NCBI GenBank assembly: GCA_963741955.1
Contig: CAVUKB010000011.1
Span: 1 to 10,532 of the forward strand
DNA: 10,532 nt
From: an uncultured Acidobacteriota bacterium
GTDB taxonomy: Bacteria; Acidobacteriota; Thermoanaerobaculia; Gp7-AA8
Reading direction: 5' to 3'
The position numbers and the translations under genes are program-made. Position 1 is the first letter of the stretch, and the number at the start of each line of letters is the position of its first letter. The notes below the pieces were generated by a model. That model saw only the letters and a list, made by a program, of their open reading frames with translations. It did not search any database and had not been told where the DNA came from. Of this stretch, positions 1 to 10,532 are shown piece by piece.

Positions 1-448
1 GCACCCGTGCGCCCGAAAGCGCACCTGAAAAGGAGGTGAGAACCCTCTCAACCAAACACTCGACTGGTTGAAAACCGAAGGCAACTGCGTCGTGGCGACA
101 CGGGGTGGAGAGCAGCCGGAGGTGACTCTGTTGGTCCGCACGCAAGGAACACGATTCGGCCGGATGTTGTGACGAGCCTGCGGGTGAGTGGCGAAGTCCA
201 GAGACCTGATGGGCGCAGACGGGAAACGGCCCTGCAGGGAAAGCCCGGGACGCGAATGAGGCACGAGTGAGCAGAAAGCGATCACGGGACGCATCAGGTG
301 GTTGGTGGCAGAACGACAGGGAAGTTCAGGTGTGGTGAATCGGGGAGATCTCGCCGCCGGGCTGACGACGGCGAGAAGTCAGAGTCTCCATAGTAGCGAG
401 GAAAGGTCGTAACGGACGAGGAGCGAAGGGAGACAGGAAGGTGGATGC

Positions 449-1328
449 GTGAAGGAAATGACGAAGGAAGAGAAACCGCGAACAGTGCGAGAGCTAGAGC
501 GTGGTGGAGAGATCCGATCCCGATGGGAATGGGTCGAAACTTCGGTATGGACCGAGCGCATGCTGGAAGCCCTGGAGAAGGGGGTGAAAGGAGGCAAGTG
601 GCATAGCCTGATCGATAAGGTGTACCGAGAAGGAAGTCTCAGAGCGGCGTGGATGCGAGTACGCGGGCGGAACGGAAGTGCAGGGGTCGACAAGATGTCG
701 ATCGAGCAGTTCGAAAAGCACGCGGACAAGCGGATCGCGCGGATGAGCGAACAACTGCGAGAGGGGAAGTTCGAACCGCGAGCGGTCAAGCGAGTCTGGA
801 TCCCGAAGGGAGGAGGGAAACTCCGCCCGTTGGGAGTGCCGACGATCATCGATCGGGTGGTGCAGACGAGCTTGCGGAACGCGATCGAGCCGATCTTCGA
901 ACGGAAGTTCGAGCCATGCAGCTACGGGTTCCGGCCCGGGCGAGGATGCAAGGATGCGCTGCGGGAAGTCACGCGACTCCTCAAACTCGGACGGACGTGG
1001 GTGGTGGACGTCGATATCGAGCAGTACTTCGACTCCATCGACCGCGAACGGCTGATGATGTTGGTTGCCGAGGAGATCGCGGACGGATCGGTCCTCCGGA
1101 TGATCCAGCAGTATCTGGATCAGGACGTGATGGAGGGGATGAAGCGGTGGCGTCCGGAAGCAGGCACGCCGCAGGGCGCGGTGATCAGTCCGTTGCTGGC
1201 AAACATCTATCTGCACCCGGTGGATGTCGCGATGAGATCGGAGGGATACGCGGTGATCCGCTATGCCGACGACATGGTCGTGATGTGCACGAGTCGGATG
1301 GAGGCAGAAAGGGCACTCGGGCGACTAG
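449..1328 (+). pseudogene. ltrA: Group II intron reverse transcriptase/maturase, N-terminal part (RT0-RT5), disrupted by IS
   Basis: Motifs SAGVDK, KRVWIPKGGGKLRPLGVPTIIDRVVQ, SYGFRPGR, VVDVDIEQYFDSI, GTPQGAVISPLLANIYL and catalytic YADD. The frame runs into the IS left end and stops at 1384. Confidence 0.93.
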
Positions 1329-1402
1329 GAGTCTGCGCGGTAGAAAACCGGTGCACGGCAAAGGAACATGATAAAAGGGTATGATTAGTAGTAACAATAA
1401 TA

Positions 1403-1418
1403 TGGTAAGATTGGGTCA
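1403..1418 (+). promoter_or_regulatory. Putative extended -10 promoter giving a leaderless transposase mRNA
   Basis: TG-G-TAAGAT (1403-1411) ends 6 nt before the ATG at 1418, in an AT-rich island. No Shine-Dalgarno sequence is visible. Confidence 0.45.
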
Positions 1419-2737
1419 TGCCGACCACGTATCGACCGTACAATCCGGAGCAGTCGCTGCTGCTTCCGCCCTCGCCATATGACTGGCTCCCTGAGGGTCA
1501 CTTGGCGCACTTCGTTTTCGACATCGTCGATCAGCTCGATCTGAGTGCATTCTACGAGCCGTACAAAGGCGACGGGAGACGGAAGCAGCCGTACGAGCCA
1601 AGGATGATGCTCAAGTTGATCATCTATTCGTACCTGACGGGAACGTTCTCCTCGCGCAAGATTGCCCGGCGGATCGATGAAGATGTCGCCGTCCGGTATC
1701 TTGCGGCCGGGAACTTTCCGTCGCATCGAACCATCTGCGACTTTCGGCTCGAGCATGTGGACGCGTTCACCTCCTTACTTGTCCAGATCATTCGGACCGC
1801 CCAAGAAACAGGGTTAGTTACGCTCGGGAGGATTGCAATCGACGGGTCGAAGGTCCGAGCGAATGCCAGTAAGCACAAGGCGATGAGCTACGATCGAATG
1901 AAGAAGGAACAAGCAAAACTCGAGAAGGAGATCGCGGACATTTTGGCCACCGCGGCGGAGGAGGATGCCCGGGAGGATGCCGAGTACGGAGTTGATCGAC
2001 GCGGGGATGAGTTGCCCGAAGAGCTCCGGCGCCGGGAGACTCGTATCCAAAAAATCAAAGAGGCACGAGAGCGACTCGAACAACGGCAGCGGGAACAGGA
2101 CACGAAGGCTGGTCGCTCCGAAGGCGACGATGATCCGGCCAGGAAGAAGGGTAAGCCATTCAAACGGAAGTTCGGCGTACCTGATGACAAAGCGCAAGAA
2201 AACTTCACCGATTCCGAGAGCCGAATCATGAAGTCCCAGGAAGGATTTCAGCAGTGCTACAACGCGCAGATCGCAGTTGATGCCTATAACCAACTCATCG
2301 TCGGATTCGAGATCACACAATCTGCGGCGGACAGCGGATCACTCCTGCCTTTGGTCGAGGTGGTCGAACAGAATTGCGAAACAACTCCCGACCAGGTTGT
2401 TGCAGACGCCGGCTACAGATCGGAAACCTCGTTCATCGAGTTGGAGCAGAAGAAGATCGATGCCTATGTTTCTCTCGGACGAGAAGGTAAAGAAGCCGCA
2501 GCTGAGACGACGCTCCCCGCGACTCTGCGGATGAAGCAGAAGTTGGACTCACCTCCAGGCAAGGCGGTCTATCGCCGGCGAAAGGCAATCGTTGAACCGG
2601 TGTTTGGCTGGGTCAAAAACGTTCTCGGCTTTCGACGATTCAGTCTCCGCGGGATGCGCAAAGTTGCCGGCGAATGGGCTCTGGTGTGCCTGGTGATCAA
2701 TCTAAAGCGAATGAGCGCTCTGGTTGCGCTCGAATAG
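1418..2737 (+). CDS. IS1182-family DDE transposase (439 aa)
   Basis: N-terminal QSLLLPPS...WLPEGHLAHFV, PYEPRMMLKLIIYSY...SSRKIAR, P-HRTICDFR, IAIDGSKVRANAS, NFTDSESRIMK, YNAQIAVD, ADAGY and YRRRKAIVEPVFGWVK..GFRRFSLRG are all typical of IS1182. Confidence 0.93.
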   Translation: MPTTYRPYNPEQSLLLPPSPYDWLPEGHLAHFVFDIVDQLDLSAFYEPYKGDGRRKQPYEPRMMLKLIIYSYLTGTFSSRKIARRIDEDVAVRYLAAGNFPSHRTICDFRLEHVDAFTSLLVQIIRTAQETGLVTLGRIAIDGSKVRANASKHKAMSYDRMKKEQAKLEKEIADILATAAEEDAREDAEYGVDRRGDELPEELRRRETRIQKIKEARERLEQRQREQDTKAGRSEGDDDPARKKGKPFKRKFGVPDDKAQENFTDSESRIMKSQEGFQQCYNAQIAVDAYNQLIVGFEITQSAADSGSLLPLVEVVEQNCETTPDQVVADAGYRSETSFIELEQKKIDAYVSLGREGKEAAAETTLPATLRMKQKLDSPPGKAVYRRRKAIVEPVFGWVKNVLGFRRFSLRGMRKVAGEWALVCLVINLKRMSALVALE

Positions 2738-2923
2738 CCGCGGCAGAGCAGTATCCAACCCCCGAAAAATCCCGCCGAACAAGTGTTTCGCGCTGCCAAC
2801 TCCCCGAGAACGGCACCATCAACCTGAAGGCGCTTCGGTGCCGCGGTTGTGCCGCTCGCGAGTGGACGTCTTACGAGATCTTCAGGAAGCGCCGAAGTTT
2901 CGTCCTACCGCGCAGACTCCTAG

Positions 2924-3372
2924 GGGAGCTGATGACGGAAAGGGGGCTGAGACTCCATCCAGTCAAGACGCGGCTCGTCGATGCGACCGAGCGCCCGGGG
3001 TTCGACTTTCTCGGATACCGATTCTTTGGGAAGCGCCGATATCCACGGCCTTCGAGCGAGAAGAAGCTGCGCGACAGCATTCGCAAGAAGACGTCGAGGA
3101 CGAGCGGGAACAGCCTGAAGGAGATTATTCGACAGGTGAACGCCACCTTGCGGGGATGGTTCGAGTACTTCAAACACAGCTCGAGCTGGGCGTTCAAGGC
3201 ACTGGATCAATGGGTGCGAATGCGAATCCGTAGCATTCTTCGCAAACGCTCGAAACGGAAGGGCGTGGGAAAAGGATCGGATCACTTCCGTTGGAAGAAT
3301 GCCTTCTTTCGGCAGCACGGTCTCTTCAGCATGCATGAGGCCCACCTGCTGCTCATTCAGTCTCGGAGATAG
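2924..3372 (+). pseudogene. ltrA: Group II intron RT/maturase, C-terminal part (RT6-RT7 and X/thumb domain, no endonuclease)
   Basis: GLRLHPVKT (RT6), GFDFLGYRF (RT7) and IRQVNATLRGWFEYFK (X domain). In frame with 449-1328 once the IS and one CTAG are removed (...ALGRLGELMTERGL...). Confidence 0.92.
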
Positions 3373-3385
3373 TCCACCGACCGGA

Positions 3386-3457
3386 GAGCCGGATGCGGGA
3401 GATCCGCACGTCCGGTTCGGAGGGAGGGGCGGAGTGATCCTCCGTCCCTACCCCTAT
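3386..3457 (+). ncRNA. Group II intron catalytic domain V and branch-point domain VI
   Basis: GAGCCGGATGCGGGAGATCCGCACGTCCGGTTC forms the DV hairpin (AGC triad, AC bulge, GAGA loop). It is followed by a GGGGCGGAG/CTCCGTCCCT stem, bulged A3450 and the AT end. Confidence 0.93.
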
Positions 3458-3459
3458 CT

Positions 3460-3487
3460 CGGAGGACCCCTTGCGCTCGGTCCTCCG
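3460..3487. other. GC-rich hairpin in the 3' exon immediately after the intron
   Basis: CGGAGGACC (3460-3468) / GGTCCTCCG (3479-3487): perfect 9-bp stem with a 10-nt loop and no U-tract. Confidence 0.5.
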
Positions 3488-3563
3488 CACTAAGTGTTTC
3501 CCCTCGGCCCTCCTCCTTCCCCCGGAAAACGACGGCAGGCTCGACCGCCGTCCGAACCACCCC

Positions 3564-3593
3564 TTGACGTCACGGGTCTCGGGGCGTTACATT
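3564..3593 (+). promoter_or_regulatory. Putative sigma70 promoter for 3654-4304
   Basis: -35 TTGACG (3564-3569), 18-nt spacer, -10 TACATT (3588-3593), about 60 nt upstream of the ATG. The TGACGTCA palindrome overlaps the -35. Confidence 0.5.
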
Positions 3594-3653
3594 CGTGGAA
3601 CCCCGGATCGCCTCATCCGGATCCGCCCGGATCATGAGGCTGGAGATTATTCG

Positions 3654-4304
3654 ATGAAGAAGAGCCGGATTGCTGTCTGGGTGGGAGCCCTCATCTTTTC
3701 GTGCGCGTCGCTGTTTGCGGCCGCGCCGCAGATCACGACTGCGGGTGTTTCGTGCATTCCGGCCAAGGGTCATCAGTTGATCACTGCCCACATCACCGGC
3801 ACGACTCCGATCATCTCCGCCCGCGTCGTCTTCCGCGCCAGCGACGAGAAAGACTGCAACTGGTCGTATGTGCAGATGCGCCACGCCCAGGGCGATCTCT
3901 GGTGGGCCGTCCTCCCGATTCCACTGAGCGCGACACCATCGGTCAACTACCGCATCACGGCCACTGACGACACCTCCGGCTCAGCTTCGACGGAACTGAT
4001 GAACACAGCCGTGAACGCGTCGTGTCCGGTTCCGACCCTGACCCCCGAGCAGTCGCGCGTCGCGCAGAACCTGGTCGTCGGTTGGACTGAAGCCGATCAG
4101 CACCAGGTCCCGTGCGGGTTCGCGTGCAGGGACATCGTCGCCGCGCTCACTCCCTCCGGCGACATGCGCCCGGTGGTCTGCAAAGTCGCGGCGGTTCCGA
4201 TCTGGCAGCCCGTCGCACTGATCGGCGCCGGTGTGGGCCTCGGCCAGATCCTCCACGAAGATCACAAAGGGAACCCTCCGGTGATCTCCCCCTCGCGTCC
4301 GTAA
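3654..4304 (+). CDS. Hypothetical secreted Cys-rich protein with C-terminal Gly-rich hydrophobic segment (216 aa)
   Basis: GGAG RBS at 3642-3645 and ATG at 3654. Signal peptide MKKSRIAVWVGALIFSCASLFA. Beta-rich middle region with several Cys. C-terminus PVALIGAGVGLGQIL...SPSRP. The TTG start at 3471 in the ORF track is likely an over-extension. Confidence 0.8.
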   Translation: MKKSRIAVWVGALIFSCASLFAAAPQITTAGVSCIPAKGHQLITAHITGTTPIISARVVFRASDEKDCNWSYVQMRHAQGDLWWAVLPIPLSATPSVNYRITATDDTSGSASTELMNTAVNASCPVPTLTPEQSRVAQNLVVGWTEADQHQVPCGFACRDIVAALTPSGDMRPVVCKVAAVPIWQPVALIGAGVGLGQILHEDHKGNPPVISPSRP

Positions 4305-4328
4305 ACGCGTCACAGATCATCGCCTTCC

Positions 4329-5997
4329 GGCGGATCCTCCGATCCCTCGCGCCGCACATGTTCCCGCCGAGGGGCGCGGATCCTCCGATCCGCCGCGAAA
4401 CTGCTTTTTGGGAAGAATTCGAACCCACCCCGCCACGCCGCTCATGTTCCCGCCGAGGGGTGCGGATCCTCCGATCTCTCGCGCCGCTCATGTTCCCGTC
4501 GAGGGGTGCGGATCCCGCGATCTCTCGCGCCGCTCATGTTCCCGCCGAGGGGCGCGGATCCTCCGATCCGCCGCGCGAATCTCGTTCGGAGCGGATCGAG
4601 AGGACGCCTGCGGCAGAAGCGCAGCCGCCCTCGCGAGAAGCCGCTCCGCGAATGACCACCGGCACGGTCATCATCGAAGACGCCACGATCGTCGCGGCAG
4701 ATCGGAGGATCTGCACCCCAAAAGAGAACGCACCGCCTTGGGAGAACGAACGTCTCCCGCCGAGGGGCGCGGATCCTCCGATCCGCCGCGCGAATCCTGT
4801 TCGAAGCGGATCGAGACGACGCTCGCGGCAGAAGCGAAGCCGCACTCGCGAGAAACCGCTCCGCGAATGACCTCAGGCACGGTCATCATCGAAGACGCCA
4901 CGATCGTCGCGGCAGATCGGAGGATCTGCACCCCCAAAGGAGAACGCACCGCCTTGGGAGAACGAACGTCTCCCGCCGAGGGGTGCGGATCCTCCGATCC
5001 GCCGCGCGAATCCTGTTCGAAGCGCATCGAGACGACGCTCGTGGCAGAAGCGCAGCCGCCCTCGCGAGAAGCCGCTCCGCGAATGACCACAGGCACGGTC
5101 ATCATCGAAGACGCCACGATCGTCGCGGCAGATCGGAGGATCTGCACCCCAAAAGAGAACGCACCCCCTTGGGAGAACGAACGTCTCCCGCCGAGGGGTG
5201 CGGATCCCGCGATCTCTCGCGCCGCTCATGTTCCCGCCGAGGGGCGCGGATCCTCCGATCCGCCGCGCGAATCTCGTTCGAAGCGAATCGAGACGACGCT
5301 CGTGGCAGAAGCGAAGCCGCCCTCGCGAGAAGCCGCTCCGCGAATGACCCCAGGTACGTTCATCATCGAAGACGCCACGATCGTCGCGGCAGATCGGAGG
5401 ATCTGCACCCCCAAAAGAGAACGCACCCCCTTGGGAGAACGAACGTCTCCCGCCGAGGAGTGCGGATCCCGCGAGGCGGGATCCGCCGCGCGAATCTCGT
5501 TCGGAGCGGATCGAGAGGACGCCTGCGGCAGAAGCGCAGCCGCCCTCGCGAGAAGCCGCTCCGCGAATGACCACCGGCACGGTCATCATCGAAGACGCCA
5601 CGATCGTCGCGGCAGATCGGAGGATCTGCACCCCAAAAGAGAACGCACCGCCTTGGGAGAACGAACGTCTCCCGCCGAGGAGTGCGGATCCTCCGATCTC
5701 TCGCGCCGCTCATGTTCCCGCCGAGGGGCGCGGATCCCGCGAGGCGGGATCCGCCGCGCGAATCCTGTTCGAAGCGGATCGAGACGACGCTCGTGGCAGA
5801 AGCGCAGCCGCCCTCGCGAGAAGCCGCTCCGCGAATGACCCCAGGCACGGTCATCATCGAAGACGCCACGATCGTCGCGGCAGATCGGAGGATCTGCACC
5901 CCAAAACAGAACGCACCCCCTTGGGAGAACGAACCTACCCGCCGCGCGAGTCGCGTTCGGAGCGGATCGAGACGACGCCCCCGGAAGAAGCGAAGCC
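4329..5997. repeat. Tandem array of REP/REPIN (BIME-like) palindromic units
   Basis: Six long units start at 4549, 4764, 4980, 5241, 5457 and 5725 (period 215-222 bp). Each is bounded by inverted arms GG(G/A)GYGCGGATCCTCCGATCCGCCGCG / CGCGGCAGATCGGAGGATCTGCACCCC. 46-bp single-arm modules occur at 4457, 4503, 5195 and 5679, with degenerate copies at both edges. Confidence 0.9.
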
Positions 5998-6155
5998 CTG
6001 CGTCCACTTCGAACTTGACCTCAAACACCGACATCGCGTGGCCCGAAGGGCGAATTCCTCGCCTGAACCGCGCGATATACCCCATATCGAGGATCGACAG
6101 CATCCGACGCGTTGGTTTACACTGCTCCGTCAAATAAGTTCGTCGGCAGGTATCG

Positions 6156-7436
6156 GTGCAACGCATTTCGAATCACTTACGGATCGCGCTCGCGACTCTC
6201 GTCGTGGCCCTCGTCCCCCTGATCGCAATTCCTCAGGTCACTTCCGATCAGGTTCCGCGCGAGCGGACCATCCCCCTCCGCCAGCAGATCGACGGGGAGA
6301 TGGCGGAGAGCCGCTTCCAGCTGGGGCCCATCCGACTCGAGCCGGAGCTGAACCTCAGGAACATCGGCTACGACAGTAACGTCTTCGGCACTCCCGAGAA
6401 CCCGGTTTCCGACTGGACTGCCACGGTCTCCGCCGGCGTCGACGCGCTCCTTCCCATCGGCCGCAAGCTCTACCTGCGCGGCGCCGTCCTCCCCGAGTAC
6501 ACCTGGTTCGCCGAGCTCAAGGACCGCCGCAACCTCGGCGGTCACTTCGACGGCGCCCTTCTCGCCCTCTTCAACCGGATGTCCCTGGAAGCGGGAGCCG
6601 GGAGCGACGAGTCGCTCGCGAACGTCAGCTCGGAGATTCAGCGACCAGTGGTCTCCAACACCAGCCGGGTCTACGCGAAGAGCGAGATCGACGTCCTTCG
6701 GAGGCTCTCCCTCTTCGGCGACTGGGAAGGCCACGACCTCAATTACGATCAGCCGGCCGACGCCGGCAATGCGTACGACGTCACTCTCCTCGACCGCCGC
6801 GATACCGTCGCCCGCGGCGGGATTCGTTATCATTTCCGCCCCTGGTTCGACATCGCCGTCGGCGCCGAAAAGACCCGGGCCGAATTCGACAAACAGCCGG
6901 AGGTCCGCGACAACCAGTCGACCGCCACGGTGATCGGAATCCACTACGACCGTCCACGCTCATTTCTGGAGCTCTGGGCCGGCCAGCGCAAAGGTGAAGC
7001 ACTGAACGGATCGCAGTTTCCGACCTACAGCGGAACCACCGGGTCGTATTTCGCGTCGTACTTCCTGCGGAGGCGTCTGGAGCTACAGGCGTTCGGGAGC
7101 CGTTCGATCGTACCGGGGCTCTTCGTTGCGAACCCGTACTTCGTCGAGATCCGTAACGGCGCCGGCATCTCGTCGGCTGTCGGCTCGCGGACCACGCTCC
7201 GCCTCTATGGTGAGATCGGCACGAACGACTATCCGGTCGAGGTCGTGGTCGGAGGAGAGAACGTGACGAAGCGCGCGGACGACGTGAAGACCTACGGAGG
7301 CGGCTTCTCCTTCCGTCTCTTCCGGACCGTTCACCTCGTCATCGACGCATCCGAATCGAAGTACACGTCCAACATTTCCGGTTTCGACCGCTCCATCTTC
7401 CGGGTGACGAGCGGTCTTTCTTTCCGAGGAGACTGA
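6156..7436 (+). CDS. Outer-membrane beta-barrel protein, polysaccharide-export associated (BBP2/EpsX-like), 426 aa
   Basis: Signal peptide, 'NIGYDSNVF' motif near the N-terminus, alternating aromatic/Gly beta-strand pattern and final strand 'RVTSGLSF'. Lies directly upstream of wza/wzc. Confidence 0.75.
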   Translation: MQRISNHLRIALATLVVALVPLIAIPQVTSDQVPRERTIPLRQQIDGEMAESRFQLGPIRLEPELNLRNIGYDSNVFGTPENPVSDWTATVSAGVDALLPIGRKLYLRGAVLPEYTWFAELKDRRNLGGHFDGALLALFNRMSLEAGAGSDESLANVSSEIQRPVVSNTSRVYAKSEIDVLRRLSLFGDWEGHDLNYDQPADAGNAYDVTLLDRRDTVARGGIRYHFRPWFDIAVGAEKTRAEFDKQPEVRDNQSTATVIGIHYDRPRSFLELWAGQRKGEALNGSQFPTYSGTTGSYFASYFLRRRLELQAFGSRSIVPGLFVANPYFVEIRNGAGISSAVGSRTTLRLYGEIGTNDYPVEVVVGGENVTKRADDVKTYGGGFSFRLFRTVHLVIDASESKYTSNISGFDRSIFRVTSGLSFRGD

Positions 7437-7442
7437 TCCTTC

Positions 7443-8303
7443 ATGACCCTGGTGATCCATCCCCGTCATTCCTTCTACCGTACGGCTCTGCTCACGCTCG
7501 CCGCACTGACGATCCTCGTTCCTTCCTCCCTTCGCGCGCAGGATCCGGGCGAATACCGCCTCGGTCCGAAGGATCTGATCGAGATCAAGGTGCTCGAGAT
7601 CCCGGAGCTGAACATGGATCGCCGCGTCGGTGACGACGGTGACATCGACCTTCCGCTCCTCGGACAGTTTCCGGTTGCCGGACTCACCGCGAGCGAAGTT
7701 CGCGACAAGCTCGAGACGATCCTCCGCTCGAAATACGTGAACCGCGCAAACGTCTCCGTCATCATCAAGGAGTACGCGAACAAGCCCGTGTCGATCCTCG
7801 GCGCGGTCGAGCATCCCGGCTCACTCACCATCTCCGGCCGCTGGACACTTCTCCAGGCCATCTCCGCCGCCGGCGGCCTCGCCCAGAATGCAGGTAAGAA
7901 GATCTTCGTCATACGCCAGGGGACGAAGGGACTTTCGCAGACCCTCGAGATCAACGTCGCCGATCTCTTCACCGGCGCATCCACCTGGAACATTCCGATC
8001 TACCCGTCGGACGTGGTGAACATCCCGCCTCGTACCAAGGTGAACGTCTTCGTGCTCGGTGAAGTCCGCACTCCCGGAGCGCTCGAGTTCTCCAGCGACG
8101 ACCGCCTCACTCTTCTCTCTGTCATCGCGAAGGCAGGCGGGCTCTCCGACCGCGCCTCCAAGCACATCCGGATCAAGCGGCGAGGTTCGGATGGGAAAGA
8201 CCAGGAGCTGCAGGCCGATTACAACCGGATCGTTTCCGGCCGGGACAAAGATCCCGAGATCAAACCCGACGACGTAGTGATCGTAAAGGCATCGTTCTTC
8301 TGA
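7443..8303 (+). CDS. wza: Polysaccharide export OPX protein (Poly_export + SLBB domains), short form, 286 aa
   Basis: EYRLGPKDLIEIKV...RVGDDGDIDLPLLGQFPVAGLT (PES domain). SLBB repeats VSILGAVEHPG..TLLQAISAAGGL and VFVLGEVRTPG..LLSVIAKAGGL. The stop overlaps the next ATG (TGATG). Confidence 0.88.
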   Translation: MTLVIHPRHSFYRTALLTLAALTILVPSSLRAQDPGEYRLGPKDLIEIKVLEIPELNMDRRVGDDGDIDLPLLGQFPVAGLTASEVRDKLETILRSKYVNRANVSVIIKEYANKPVSILGAVEHPGSLTISGRWTLLQAISAAGGLAQNAGKKIFVIRQGTKGLSQTLEINVADLFTGASTWNIPIYPSDVVNIPPRTKVNVFVLGEVRTPGALEFSSDDRLTLLSVIAKAGGLSDRASKHIRIKRRGSDGKDQELQADYNRIVSGRDKDPEIKPDDVVIVKASFF

Positions 8304-10532
8304 TGAGCAAACAGCCCGAATTCTTCGACGACGAGCTTCTCACCGACGAATCATCCCAGCGGGAGGTGCATCTCTCCGAGTATTGGAACGTCATCGTCAA
8401 GCGCCGCCGCCTGATTACTCTCGCCGTTCTGGTCGCGGTGGTCTTCGCTGCGGTCGTCTCCCTGATGACGACGCCTCTCTACAAGGCGAATGCGACGCTG
8501 AGCGTCTCTCCCGAGTCGGCGACGCCGTTCGACATCGCGATGACCCAGCCCGTCTTCGAACGGTACAACCCGGAGTTCCTCGCGACGCAGACCCGCCTGA
8601 TCCGAAGCCGCCAGATCGCCGAGCAGGTGGTCGACCGGCTCAAGCTCACTGAAAATTCGGAGTTCTTCGAGAAAAAGAGCGGCGCGTTCCAGAGCGCGGG
8701 ACAGAGCGATCCCGATTCTGCCACCAGCGACCGGATCGTCGCCGCGATCCGCGTCCAGAGCGGGATCGAGACCACGCCTGTTCGTGGCACCGATCTGGTC
8801 GAGCTTTCCTACACGTCCACCTCTCCGAAGCTCGCCGCGGAGATCGCGAACGCGGTCGCCGAGTCGTACATCGAATGGAGTCTCGAAACGAAGTACGGAG
8901 CTCTCGGGCAGGCCTCTCGTTTTCTCTCCGGACAGATCGAGCAGCTCAAGGCGGAGCTCGACGACAAGGAGAAGAAGCTCCAGGCGTACTCGCAGCGGAC
9001 GGACATCGTCTCCGTCGACCCCACCACAAACATCACGTTGCAGAAGCTCGAGTCGCTGAACAAAGATTATGCCGCCGCCGTCGCGGACCGCGTCGACAAG
9101 GAAGCGCGCTACTACCAGCTCCAGAACGCGAAACCGGAATCGATCGCCGACTCCCTCTCCAGCGGGCTGGTCGCCCAGCTCCGTAACGACCAGGCGAAGC
9201 TCGAGCGCGACTACGCCGAGAAGCTGAACCTCTTCAAGCCCGAGTGGCCGGCCATGCAGCAGCTCAAGGCGCAGATCGACAAGGGGCGGCAGAACCTCGA
9301 CGAGGTGATGCAGGAGACCATCGCGAAGGCACGCGACGTCGCGCGAAACGACTACCTCACTGCACGCCGCCGGGAAGAGAACCTCAAGGCGGTCCTGCAG
9401 GGACAGAAAACTGAAGCGATGGCGCTCAACAGCAACGCCGTCGAGTACAACAACCTGAAGACAGAGGTCGAGACCAAGCGCGCCCTCCTCGATCTCCTCC
9501 TCAAGCGCCAGGCCGAGACGGAGATCAATTCGCGTCTCCGCGGAGAGCGCGTCTCGAATATCAGGGTCGTCGACCGAGCGCTCCCGCCGAACGTCCGCTT
9601 CCGTCCCAGTTACCGCCGCAACGGCATGCTCGCCCTCTTCCTCGGCGCGCTCGCCGGACTCGGACTCGCGTTTCTCCTCGAGTACCTCGACCGCAGCATC
9701 CGCACTCCGGAGCAGATCGAGTCGATCCTCCGCCTCCCGCCGCTCGGCATCATTCCCGCGGTCGGCGACGCGAACGGCAAAGGTTACGGCTACGGCTACG
9801 GGAAGTACTTCCGGAAGCGGAAGGGCAAACAGGGGCCGAAGCCACCGGGCGAGGATTCGGGAACGTCGAACTTCTTCCGCACACCCACCCCCGCGCGGTC
9901 GTCGCCGAAGCGTATCGCGCGTTCCGCGCATCGCTCCTCCTCTCCCGTGCCGGCGGGCTCAAGTCGATGGTCATCTCCTCGAGTCTTCCCGGCGAAGGGA
10001 AGTCGGCCACCGCGGTCAACCTCGCCGCGGTGCTCGGACAGCTCGGAAAGAAAGTCCTTCTCATCGACGCGGACCTCCACAAGCCGCGCATACACGAGAT
10101 CCTCAAGATGTCCAACCGGCAGGGACTCACGTCCATCCTGGCGATGAACGCGAAAGCGGCAGAGATCATCCAGCAGACGCAGATCCCGGCAGTCTGGGCG
10201 GTTCCGCCGGACCCAACTCACCCAATCCTTCCGGTCTTCTCGCTTCCGACGCGATGAAGCGGTTCCTCGAGTTCGCGTTCGAGAACTTCGACTACGTTCT
10301 CCTCGACACCCCTCCGCTCTCCCTCGTCGCCGACGCGATGATCCTCGGCGCCGCCACCGACGGCCTTGTGCTCACCATCCACGGCGGCAAGACCCCCCGC
10401 GAGCAGATCCTCCGCGTCCGGGACATGCTCCAGCGCGGCAACGTCCGAATCCTCGGCGTCCTCCTCAACAACCTCCGCGAAGACGCCGGCGGCTACGGTC
10501 AGTACTACTACTACGGCTACTCGTACGGCTAC
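8303..10532 (+). CDS. wzc: Polysaccharide co-polymerase / BY-kinase (Wzc/GumC family), frameshifted twice, 3' end runs off the window
   Basis: Wzz-type N-terminus (HLSEYWNVIVKRR + TM), coiled coil, IRVVDRA..P, second TM, LEYLDRSIRT. After a -1 shift near 9860: AEAYRAFRASL, Walker A PGEGKS, Walker A' LLIDAD. After a second -1 shift near 10205: PNPSGLL, Walker B VLLDTPP and the Tyr cluster YGQYYYYGYSYGY. Confidence 0.9.

Follow-up and report, generated by a model that had tools for sequence, protein, structure and literature searches.

The window analysed here is the 10,532 nt stretch that opens contig C11 (GenBank CAVUKB010000011.1) in the assembly of an uncultured Acidobacteriota bacterium (GCA_963741955.1, here called G000; 5.44 Mb in 16 contigs). 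The forward strand of the window carries a group II intron, and downstream of it lies an array containing the local family of repetitive extragenic palindromic (REP) elements. Since the window begins at the first base of the contig, only 6 nt of the 5′ exon are present. The positions of all features are given in Table 1.

The intron was delimited by its 5′ end, by the Rfam match to domains V and VI, and by an open reading frame (ORF) for a reverse transcriptase (RT) and maturase. The 5′ end (GUGCG, nt 7–11) fits the GUGYG rule of group II introns, and the 3′ end (…CCCCUAU, ending at nt 3457) fits the AY rule. Rfam model RF00029 (domains V/VI) is matched over its full length at nt 3384–3457 with 56.6 bits (gathering score 40). 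The models for domains I–IV gave sub-threshold matches only (RF01998, 18.4 bits; RF02001, 12.9 bits), from which no class can be called. Without the ORF, the ribozyme portion is about 530 nt.

The N-terminal part of the protein that the intron encodes (IEP) carries an RVT_1 domain (PF00078, E 1.6e-30) and the C-terminal part a GIIM domain (PF08388, E 2.8e-16), while a domain search with both ORF halves found no endonuclease domain. Among solved structures, in a PDB comparison set that contains no class D, E or F protein, the RT domain is most similar to group IIC reverse transcriptases (E 1e-52 to 8e-49), followed by LtrA (E 3e-35) and the T. elongatus protein (E 1e-28). The C-terminal half aligns with a IIC protein (E 1.6e-5) and a IIB protein (E 1.5e-4), which does not discriminate between the two, and the last 38 residues align to no PDB entry.

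Table 1. Positions of the intron, its exons, the inserted element and the repeat array in the window.
Feature	Position (nt)	Strand	Remarks
Last 6 nt of 5′ exon, GCACCC	1..6	+	tail of a REP copy, the hairpin of which falls before the first base of the contig; nt 2–6 (CACCC) are the proposed intron-binding site 1 (IBS1)
Group II intron	7..3457	+	3451 nt as found; ~1856 nt once the insertion sequence (IS) and one of the two CTAG duplicates are subtracted
Proposed alpha, CACUCG	57..62	+	pairs with alpha′ CGAGUG at 264–269; complementary changes in relatives (alignment and consensus fold)
Proposed exon-binding site 1 (EBS1), GGGUG	182..186	+	in an 11-nt loop of domain I; pairs with exon CACCC
IEP, N-terminal part (reverse transcriptase domain)	449..1328	+	start GTG 449 or ATG 458; cut by the IS
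CTAG target-site duplication	1325..1328 (left), 2920–2923 (right)	.	read from the sequence
IS5/IS1182-like IS, 1591 bp	1329..2919	+	terminal inverted repeats of ~15 bp (GAGTCTGCGCGGTAG...)
IS transposase ORF, 439-aa DDE	1418–2737	+	PF01609, PF13751, PF05598
IEP, C-terminal part	2924..3372	+	end of RT, maturase/X domain, short basic tail
Domain V	3386..3418	+	33 nt; AGC triad, 9-bp basal helix, AC bulge, 4-bp distal helix, 5-nt loop GAGAU
Domain VI and 3′ end ...CUACCCCUAU	3421..3457	+	Rfam alignment
3′ exon	3458..3520	+	first base C is the proposed IBS3; a second small hairpin follows (GGAGGACC...GGTCCTCC)
REP-containing repeat array	4320..5950	.	units of 46, ~215–268 and 484 bp; hairpin in both orientations; local REP family

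Excision of nt 7–3457 joins the exons as GCACCC|CTCGGAGG. Within the array, the reverse complement of window nt 4450–4463 is GCACCCCTCGGCGG, and this matches the joined exons at 13 of 14 positions, with 11 contiguous identities. The first-pass annotation of this DNA, made from the sequence alone, had proposed from this match that the intron is inserted in a copy of the local REP; the match, which includes only 6 nt of 5′ exon, was recovered when the sequence was re-read. It had also predicted that a REP hairpin stands directly upstream of the window. None of the other contigs of the assembly continues upstream of position 1, and the flank of this copy is missing, but contig C13 carries a paralogous, unoccupied locus (99.5% identity over window nt 3458–4390 and 97.6% over 5950–8658) at which the predicted hairpin followed by ACCC is present. 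The empty site reads ...GCCGCGGATCGGAGGATCCGCACCC|CTCGGAGGACC..., in which ACCC separates the insertion point from a 7-bp stem (GCGGATC/GATCCGC) with a GGAG loop. This places the insertion 4 nt past the REP hairpin, as annotated. The 6 nt of 5′ exon are identical between the window and the C13 paralogue, and the 3′ exon (nt 3458–3520) is 98.4% identical to C13:4849–4787. A third paralogue, on C6, is 91% identical, and its contig stops 5 nt short of the insertion point.

The hairpin motif is a short, GC-rich palindrome with more than 100 copies in the genome and arrays in the window, and so qualifies as a REP. The sequence GC[AG]GATC-GGAG-GATC[CT]GC occurs 199 times in the 5.44 Mb, and in 176 of these copies it is followed by ACCCC, corresponding to IBS1 plus IBS3. 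With the hairpin, CACCC and the following C all present in these 176 copies, EBS1 of the intron fits the REP consensus. The more general stem-N4-stem pattern gives 822 matches over both strands, a count in which each site appears twice because the pattern is palindromic. Matches related to the array number in the hundreds across the genome, and arrays similar to that at nt 4320–5950 are found on C5, C6, C7, C4, C9 and C13.

The GGGUG of the domain I loop is complementary to the last five bases of the 5′ exon, CACCC, and across six distinct introns EBS1 covaries with the last 5–6 nt of the exon, as judged by eye. For example, relatives carry the EBS1/IBS1 pairs UGGGCA/UGCCCA, GGGGU/ACCCC, UAGCG/CGCUA and GCUCG/CGAGC, and one has UGGUG/UGCCA, with two wobbles. 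The pairing extends over 5–6 bp in five of the six introns, and at some sites in a related genome, G025, it consists of 3 bp plus a wobble. The first base of the 3′ exon is C at most sites of relatives. A separate match, between intron GCCCG/GUCCGA and the 5′ arm of some hairpins, was taken as chance, given that the intron sequence is conserved and the stems are GC-rich; it is absent in four of nine introns.

A good fit to the REP tail could also arise from homing that is specific for the REP sequence itself, with EBS1 acting together with EBS2 or with protein contacts, as in a IIB intron whose long homing site is a repeat. The 13/14 match of the joined exons to the REP consensus and the 176 genomic sites fitting EBS1 speak for such homing, as does a 5-nt sequence of domain I, CGGAU (about nt 161–165), that complements exon positions −10 to −6 and was considered as a candidate EBS2. 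This candidate was rejected because it lies in a helix that covaries in relatives. As no recurrent EBS2-like complementarity to exon positions −6 to −25 was found in nine introns either, the intron is taken to have no EBS2, and the comparison of insertion sites in relatives, given next, also speaks against homing of this type.

When 40 other related genomes were searched with the 5′ 448 nt of the intron, 9 proved to contain homologous introns, and the RT half of the protein matches 26 loci in named metagenome-assembled genomes (MAGs), together with many plasmid records, the best of which has 54% identity. Close relatives of the protein are found in Thermoanaerobaculia MAGs. At 15 of 20 insertion sites of this clade, the junction is preceded by a perfect Watson-Crick stem of 7–11 bp whose 3′ arm ends 1–4 nt before it. 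Sites were scored for a perfect stem of at least 7 bp, a loop of 2–10 nt and a 3′ arm ending 1–4 nt before the junction, and by the same measure hairpins precede 757 of 20,000 random positions in the same loci (3.8%) and 697 of 20,000 in contig C5 of G000 (3.5%). When near-duplicates were merged by eye, the hairpin was present in 14 of 16 distinct flanks. Not among the 20 sites are loci whose 5′ exon runs into the edge of a contig (L020/L025, L022, L024 and L033), L031 (5′ end not found), the partial matches L009 and L010, and L008, which belongs to an unpublished genome. The stems have no sequence in common between hosts, and 10 of the 15 hairpins have purine-only loops. Two loci, L026 (Planctomycetaceae MAG) and L023 (Thermoanaerobaculia MAG), have hairpin repeats of this type in tandem upstream, two or three in number, with the intron after the last one; these look like clusters of bacterial interspersed mosaic elements (BIMEs).

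The 70-nt 5′ flank proved to be a dispersed repeat in all four relatives tested, with at least 36 matches in its own genome for G025, at least 40 for G027, at least 79 for G005 and at least 58 for G008, showing that the lineage sits in the dispersed repeats of its own hosts. G025 carries four copies of 1873 nt with a mutual identity of 99.8–100%, all with intact ORFs, plus a 5′ fragment. The four copies follow three different stems (four when the fragment is included), and these stems are common only in the last 3–6 nt before the junction. Comparison of the flanks of all copies, suggested by the first-pass annotation, therefore gave a divided answer: the flanks are repetitive in every relative tested, but the stems differ between genomes and even within G025. 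In the same way, the idea that the lineage targets REPs holds to the extent that this intron lies in a REP copy and its relatives in dispersed repeats of their hosts, but the feature they share is not a REP sequence. Near-identical copies at different stems, and hairpins of entirely different sequence in different hosts, make homing to the REP sequence itself highly improbable.

Three of the related genomes contain ORF-less derivatives of the intron (L016 in G005, L017 in G008, and L018 + L011 in G027; lengths 742, 736 and 921 nt), which retain conserved domains I, V and VI but have lost the protein gene, and all of which follow a repeat hairpin. The 5′ probe has one match each in G005 and G008 and two in G027, all ORF-less, in genomes where the IEP itself was not searched.

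Because REPs are very abundant and the 5′ exon is represented by 6 nt only, the position of the intron might be a coincidence in REP-rich intergenic DNA, or the 5′ junction, lying at a contig start, might be an assembly chimera. A further point in favour of such readings is that contigs C11 and C6 end at an identical position in the REP. Coincidence is countered by the 15 of 20 sites with a hairpin, when the background rate is about 3.6%. The 3′ junction is internal to the contig, the empty paralogue has its hairpin where one was predicted and the 6 nt of exon agree, so we give either possibility very little credence.

The class of the ribozyme was considered next to that of group IIC introns, which passages of Toor 2006 (PMC1702495) describe as small, with a domain V whose triad is CGC rather than AGC and whose distal stem is 2 bp shorter than that of IIA and IIB introns, an 11-nt epsilon′ bulge with AGGAA, an EBS1 of 3–4 bp, no EBS2, and a 5′ exon that carries a stem-loop. 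The intron shares the last two of these traits, but its triad is AGC, its distal stem is 4 bp and its EBS1–IBS1 pairing is 5–6 bp. As a candidate for the epsilon′ motif, by sequence alone, it has AGGAG (about nt 32–36), and relatives have AGGAG or AGAAG, where the IIC description gives AGGAA. The 33-nt domain V with its 5-nt loop is retained in relatives down to about 43% IEP identity. By comparison, five plasmid introns (L056, L057, L059, L061 and L062), picked as IIC references by domain V and integron context rather than by curated labels, have a 30-nt domain V with a CGC triad, a 3-bp distal stem and a tetraloop. Two of the five are in integron cassette arrays, in reverse orientation, and in the four whose 5′ end was located a terminator or attC hairpin ends 7–10 nt upstream. 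Alpha′ (nt 264–269) of the present intron falls in a large terminal loop in a single RNAalifold consensus of seven sequences, and the alpha–alpha′ pairing covaries.

In a maximum-likelihood tree built from 37 RT domains, the window falls in a 15-row clade (support 99/99), and the 33-nt form is present in each of its members with a readable domain V. The CGC-type clade, containing all five references, is separate (support 100/97); the tree does not resolve the branching of these groups at greater depth. L009 and L018 (short matches) and L046 (no match at the threshold) were dropped before tree construction, as were the duplicate or partial loci L025, L028, L029, L034, L040, L045 and L047. The earlier assignment of the intron to a non-IIC ribozyme is thus upheld, both by the AGC triad, the 33-nt domain V and the longer EBS1–IBS1 pairing, and by the position of its RT in a clade apart from the CGC type. 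In a Polyangiaceae MAG (L043, L046), the IEP groups with the CGC-type clade and domain V is 31 nt with a 3-bp distal stem and an AGC triad, which shows that triad and stem length are not always coupled.

In its choice of targets, the lineage resembles group IIC. A hairpin and a pairing of about 5 nt are common to the clade, and the G025 copies follow different stems, which makes the mechanism look IIC-like. Passages of PMC1702495, PMC10190682 and PMC4424553 describe IIC introns (B.h.I1, the E. rectale intron, IIC-attC) as likewise having no endonuclease domain and inserting 3′ of a DNA stem-loop in intergenic DNA, and likewise having a short EBS1–IBS1 pairing, a single IBS3 base, no EBS2 and a relaxed sequence specificity that lets them spread to many sites. 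Two differences concern the target. The stem ends 1–4 nt before the junction in the present clade, against the 7–10 nt in the four CGC-type references, and the hairpins of the present clade are REP-type repeats without T runs.

These likenesses raise the question of whether the intron is a divergent member of the known hairpin- and terminator-targeting assemblage (class C in a broad sense, or the g6, U1 and U2 types), with a REP in place of the terminator stem-loop. The pattern of targeting would be explained, and the best RT relatives among solved structures are IIC enzymes. According to passages of Miura et al. 2022 (PMC8919778), the g6, U1 and U2 IEP types, which lie near C and F on the tree, are also found right after predicted rho-independent terminators; they are thus further non-C types that follow hairpins, compared here by their description only, a statistic on how far they lie from predicted terminators. 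In Paenibacillus, a more distant relative that has the same loop in domain V is preceded by a terminator-like hairpin with a T run. On the other hand, domain V, its triad and the length of EBS1 fall outside the definition of a IIC ribozyme, the clade is apart from the sampled CGC-type IEPs, and the spacing of stem and junction differs. On balance, membership of this assemblage appears rather unlikely.

The nearest likeness in ribozyme traits alone is to classes E and F, for which passages of Nagy et al. 2013 (PMC3753933) give a 5-nt domain V loop rather than the 4-nt zeta′, an alpha′ at the end of a stem-loop and a size of 450–700 nt. The intron agrees with these in its 5-nt domain V loop, AGC triad, ribozyme of about 530 nt and absence of an endonuclease domain, and its alpha′ may likewise lie at the end of a domain I stem-loop, as drawn in the one consensus fold of seven sequences. 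However, the IIE and IIF introns studied show an apparent EBS2–IBS2 pairing in the passages describing them, whereas this intron has no EBS2 and follows the hairpin rule. In sum, the intron works like a IIC intron, but its ribozyme is not IIC and has two IIE/IIF-like traits.

In passages of PMC4424553, PMC7306698 and PMC12584367, insertion guided by a hairpin counts as a hallmark of IIC alone. According to PMC7923331 (2021), upstream structure had no reported role in IIB-type introns; the paper also speculates on class E fragments beside attC-like hairpins, and PMC7306698 describes classes E and F as hiding in mobile elements. Within the collection of papers searched, our literature search for a described REP-targeting group II intron gave only a table entry in Tobes and Pareja 2006 (PMC1525189), according to which 2 of 9 copies of a group II intron of P. 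putida KT2440 are at REPs; that intron is known here from the entry alone. This precedent and the g6, U1 and U2 types after terminators lower the novelty of the present case. Insertion sequences that target REPs (ISPpu9, ISPpu10, IS1397 and others) likewise use them as multi-copy intergenic landing sites, but they are DNA transposons with a different chemistry.

From this evidence we conclude that the endonuclease-less group II retroelement in the window has probably inserted in a host REP, and that its lineage, with a ribozyme that is not IIC, probably targets a hairpin plus a short pairing. The intron would have reverse-spliced into one copy of the host REP, 4 nt downstream of the hairpin. 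Its target would have to offer a GC-rich DNA hairpin lying directly upstream, about 5 nt that form Watson-Crick pairs with EBS1, and a single IBS3 base, C, with no EBS2. By analogy with IIC introns, the hairpin would presumably be extruded where a replication fork exposes single-stranded DNA, and the ribonucleoprotein (RNP) would recognise it by shape; passages of PMC4424553 describe endonuclease-less introns as being primed at replication forks. REPs would be the most abundant hairpins of this kind, and since EBS1 matches the tail of the local repeat in each host, they may serve as harmless intergenic landing sites.

Several observations weigh against this explanation. The upstream flank of the intron itself is absent from the assembly, and its hairpin is deduced from 6 nt and from a paralogue of 97.6–99.5% identity. 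At 5 of the 20 sites, belonging to two flank families (two sites in one Gammaproteobacteria MAG and three in a Cupriavidus/Paraburkholderia plasmid subclade), there is only a 4–5-bp stem near the junction, and the 20 sites come from related genomes and are not fully independent. As only 1–4 nt separate stem and junction, at many sites IBS1 extends into the foot of the stem, which would need to be opened by 1–4 bp for pairing. The class was judged from ribozyme traits and from a tree whose references carry no curated labels, the nearest solved RTs are IIC enzymes, and the placement of alpha′ rests on one RNAalifold run with seven sequences.

The distribution of the intron in its own genome also counts against it. 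Only one REP target is occupied in G000, among 176 or more that match. Apart from the single copy of the intron there is one 50-nt 3′ fragment, C1:136401–136450, identical to the last 49 nt of the intron plus the first base of the 3′ exon (window nt 3409–3458). It has a normal intron 3′ end, unique non-REP flanks and a 6-bp stem at its 5′ edge, and may be either a 5′-truncated insertion or a deletion remnant. The multi-copy safe haven envisaged in the first-pass annotation is therefore not realised in this genome, where one copy split by an IS and one fragment in non-REP DNA stand beside 176 unoccupied targets.

The copy in the window is a dead end, as its RT/maturase gene, the only one in the genome, is split by the IS5-like element, a point absent from the first-pass annotation. 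The frame of the IEP runs for 292 codons from nt 449 to 1324 and for 151 codons from nt 2920 to 3372, and removal of the IS and one CTAG restores a continuous frame of about 442 codons. A search of the whole genome for GIIM gave this copy as the sole match, so that no other maturase is available in the assembly. Elsewhere in the genome the IS has 13 further copies or fragments of 87–99% identity, falling in two groups (~99% and ~93%). An allele free of the IS exists in nature: in three soil-metagenome runs, all from one study, there are contigs in which nt 1324 is joined directly to 2920, with no mismatches in the pieces shown, although one of the three runs may be the source sample of the genome, in which case the allele is not independent of the assembly. 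This indicates that the IS insertion is recent or polymorphic. Among the metagenome contigs listed, none crosses the intron's 5′ end with at least 31 nt on both sides, which is not evidence of absence, and none carries a joint that skips nt 7–3457, which likewise says nothing on absence.

The locus 3′ of the intron occurs in three versions with 91–99.5% identity (window nt 3458–10532, C13:1–4849 and C6:535451–544001), which may be paralogues or else the variants of different strains merged in a single assembly. It encodes a hypothetical secreted protein and a polysaccharide export cluster (Poly_export/SLBB, Wzz/GNVR), and it contains the repeat array. In the window (nt 8303–10532), the ORF of the Wzz/GNVR chain-length protein stops at nt 10147 and another frame is open from nt 10254 to the end; this break may be a frameshift in a tyrosine-kinase-type gene.

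It is conceivable, if somewhat doubtful at present, that the clade constitutes a distinct and so far uncharacterised class of hairpin-targeting introns, with a IIB/IIE/IIF-like ribozyme, a stem abutting an IBS1 of 5–6 bp, and an EBS1 retuned to the REP of each host. If so, structure-guided targeting would have arisen twice or would be ancestral to class C and its neighbours, and REP/BIME arrays would be natural landing pads for retroelements, as they are for IS110 and IS3 elements. A non-IIC lineage that obeys the hairpin rule would mean either that DNA shape can be recognised by ribozymes other than the minimal one of IIC, or that the behaviour attributed to IIC is wider than the class. It would also place a retroelement among the mobile elements for which REPs are a safe haven. 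The intact G025 copies and the IS-free metagenome allele are candidates for a mobility assay, and the co-variation of EBS1 with the REP tail of the host offers a testable case of a mobile intron adapting to the repeat family of its host.

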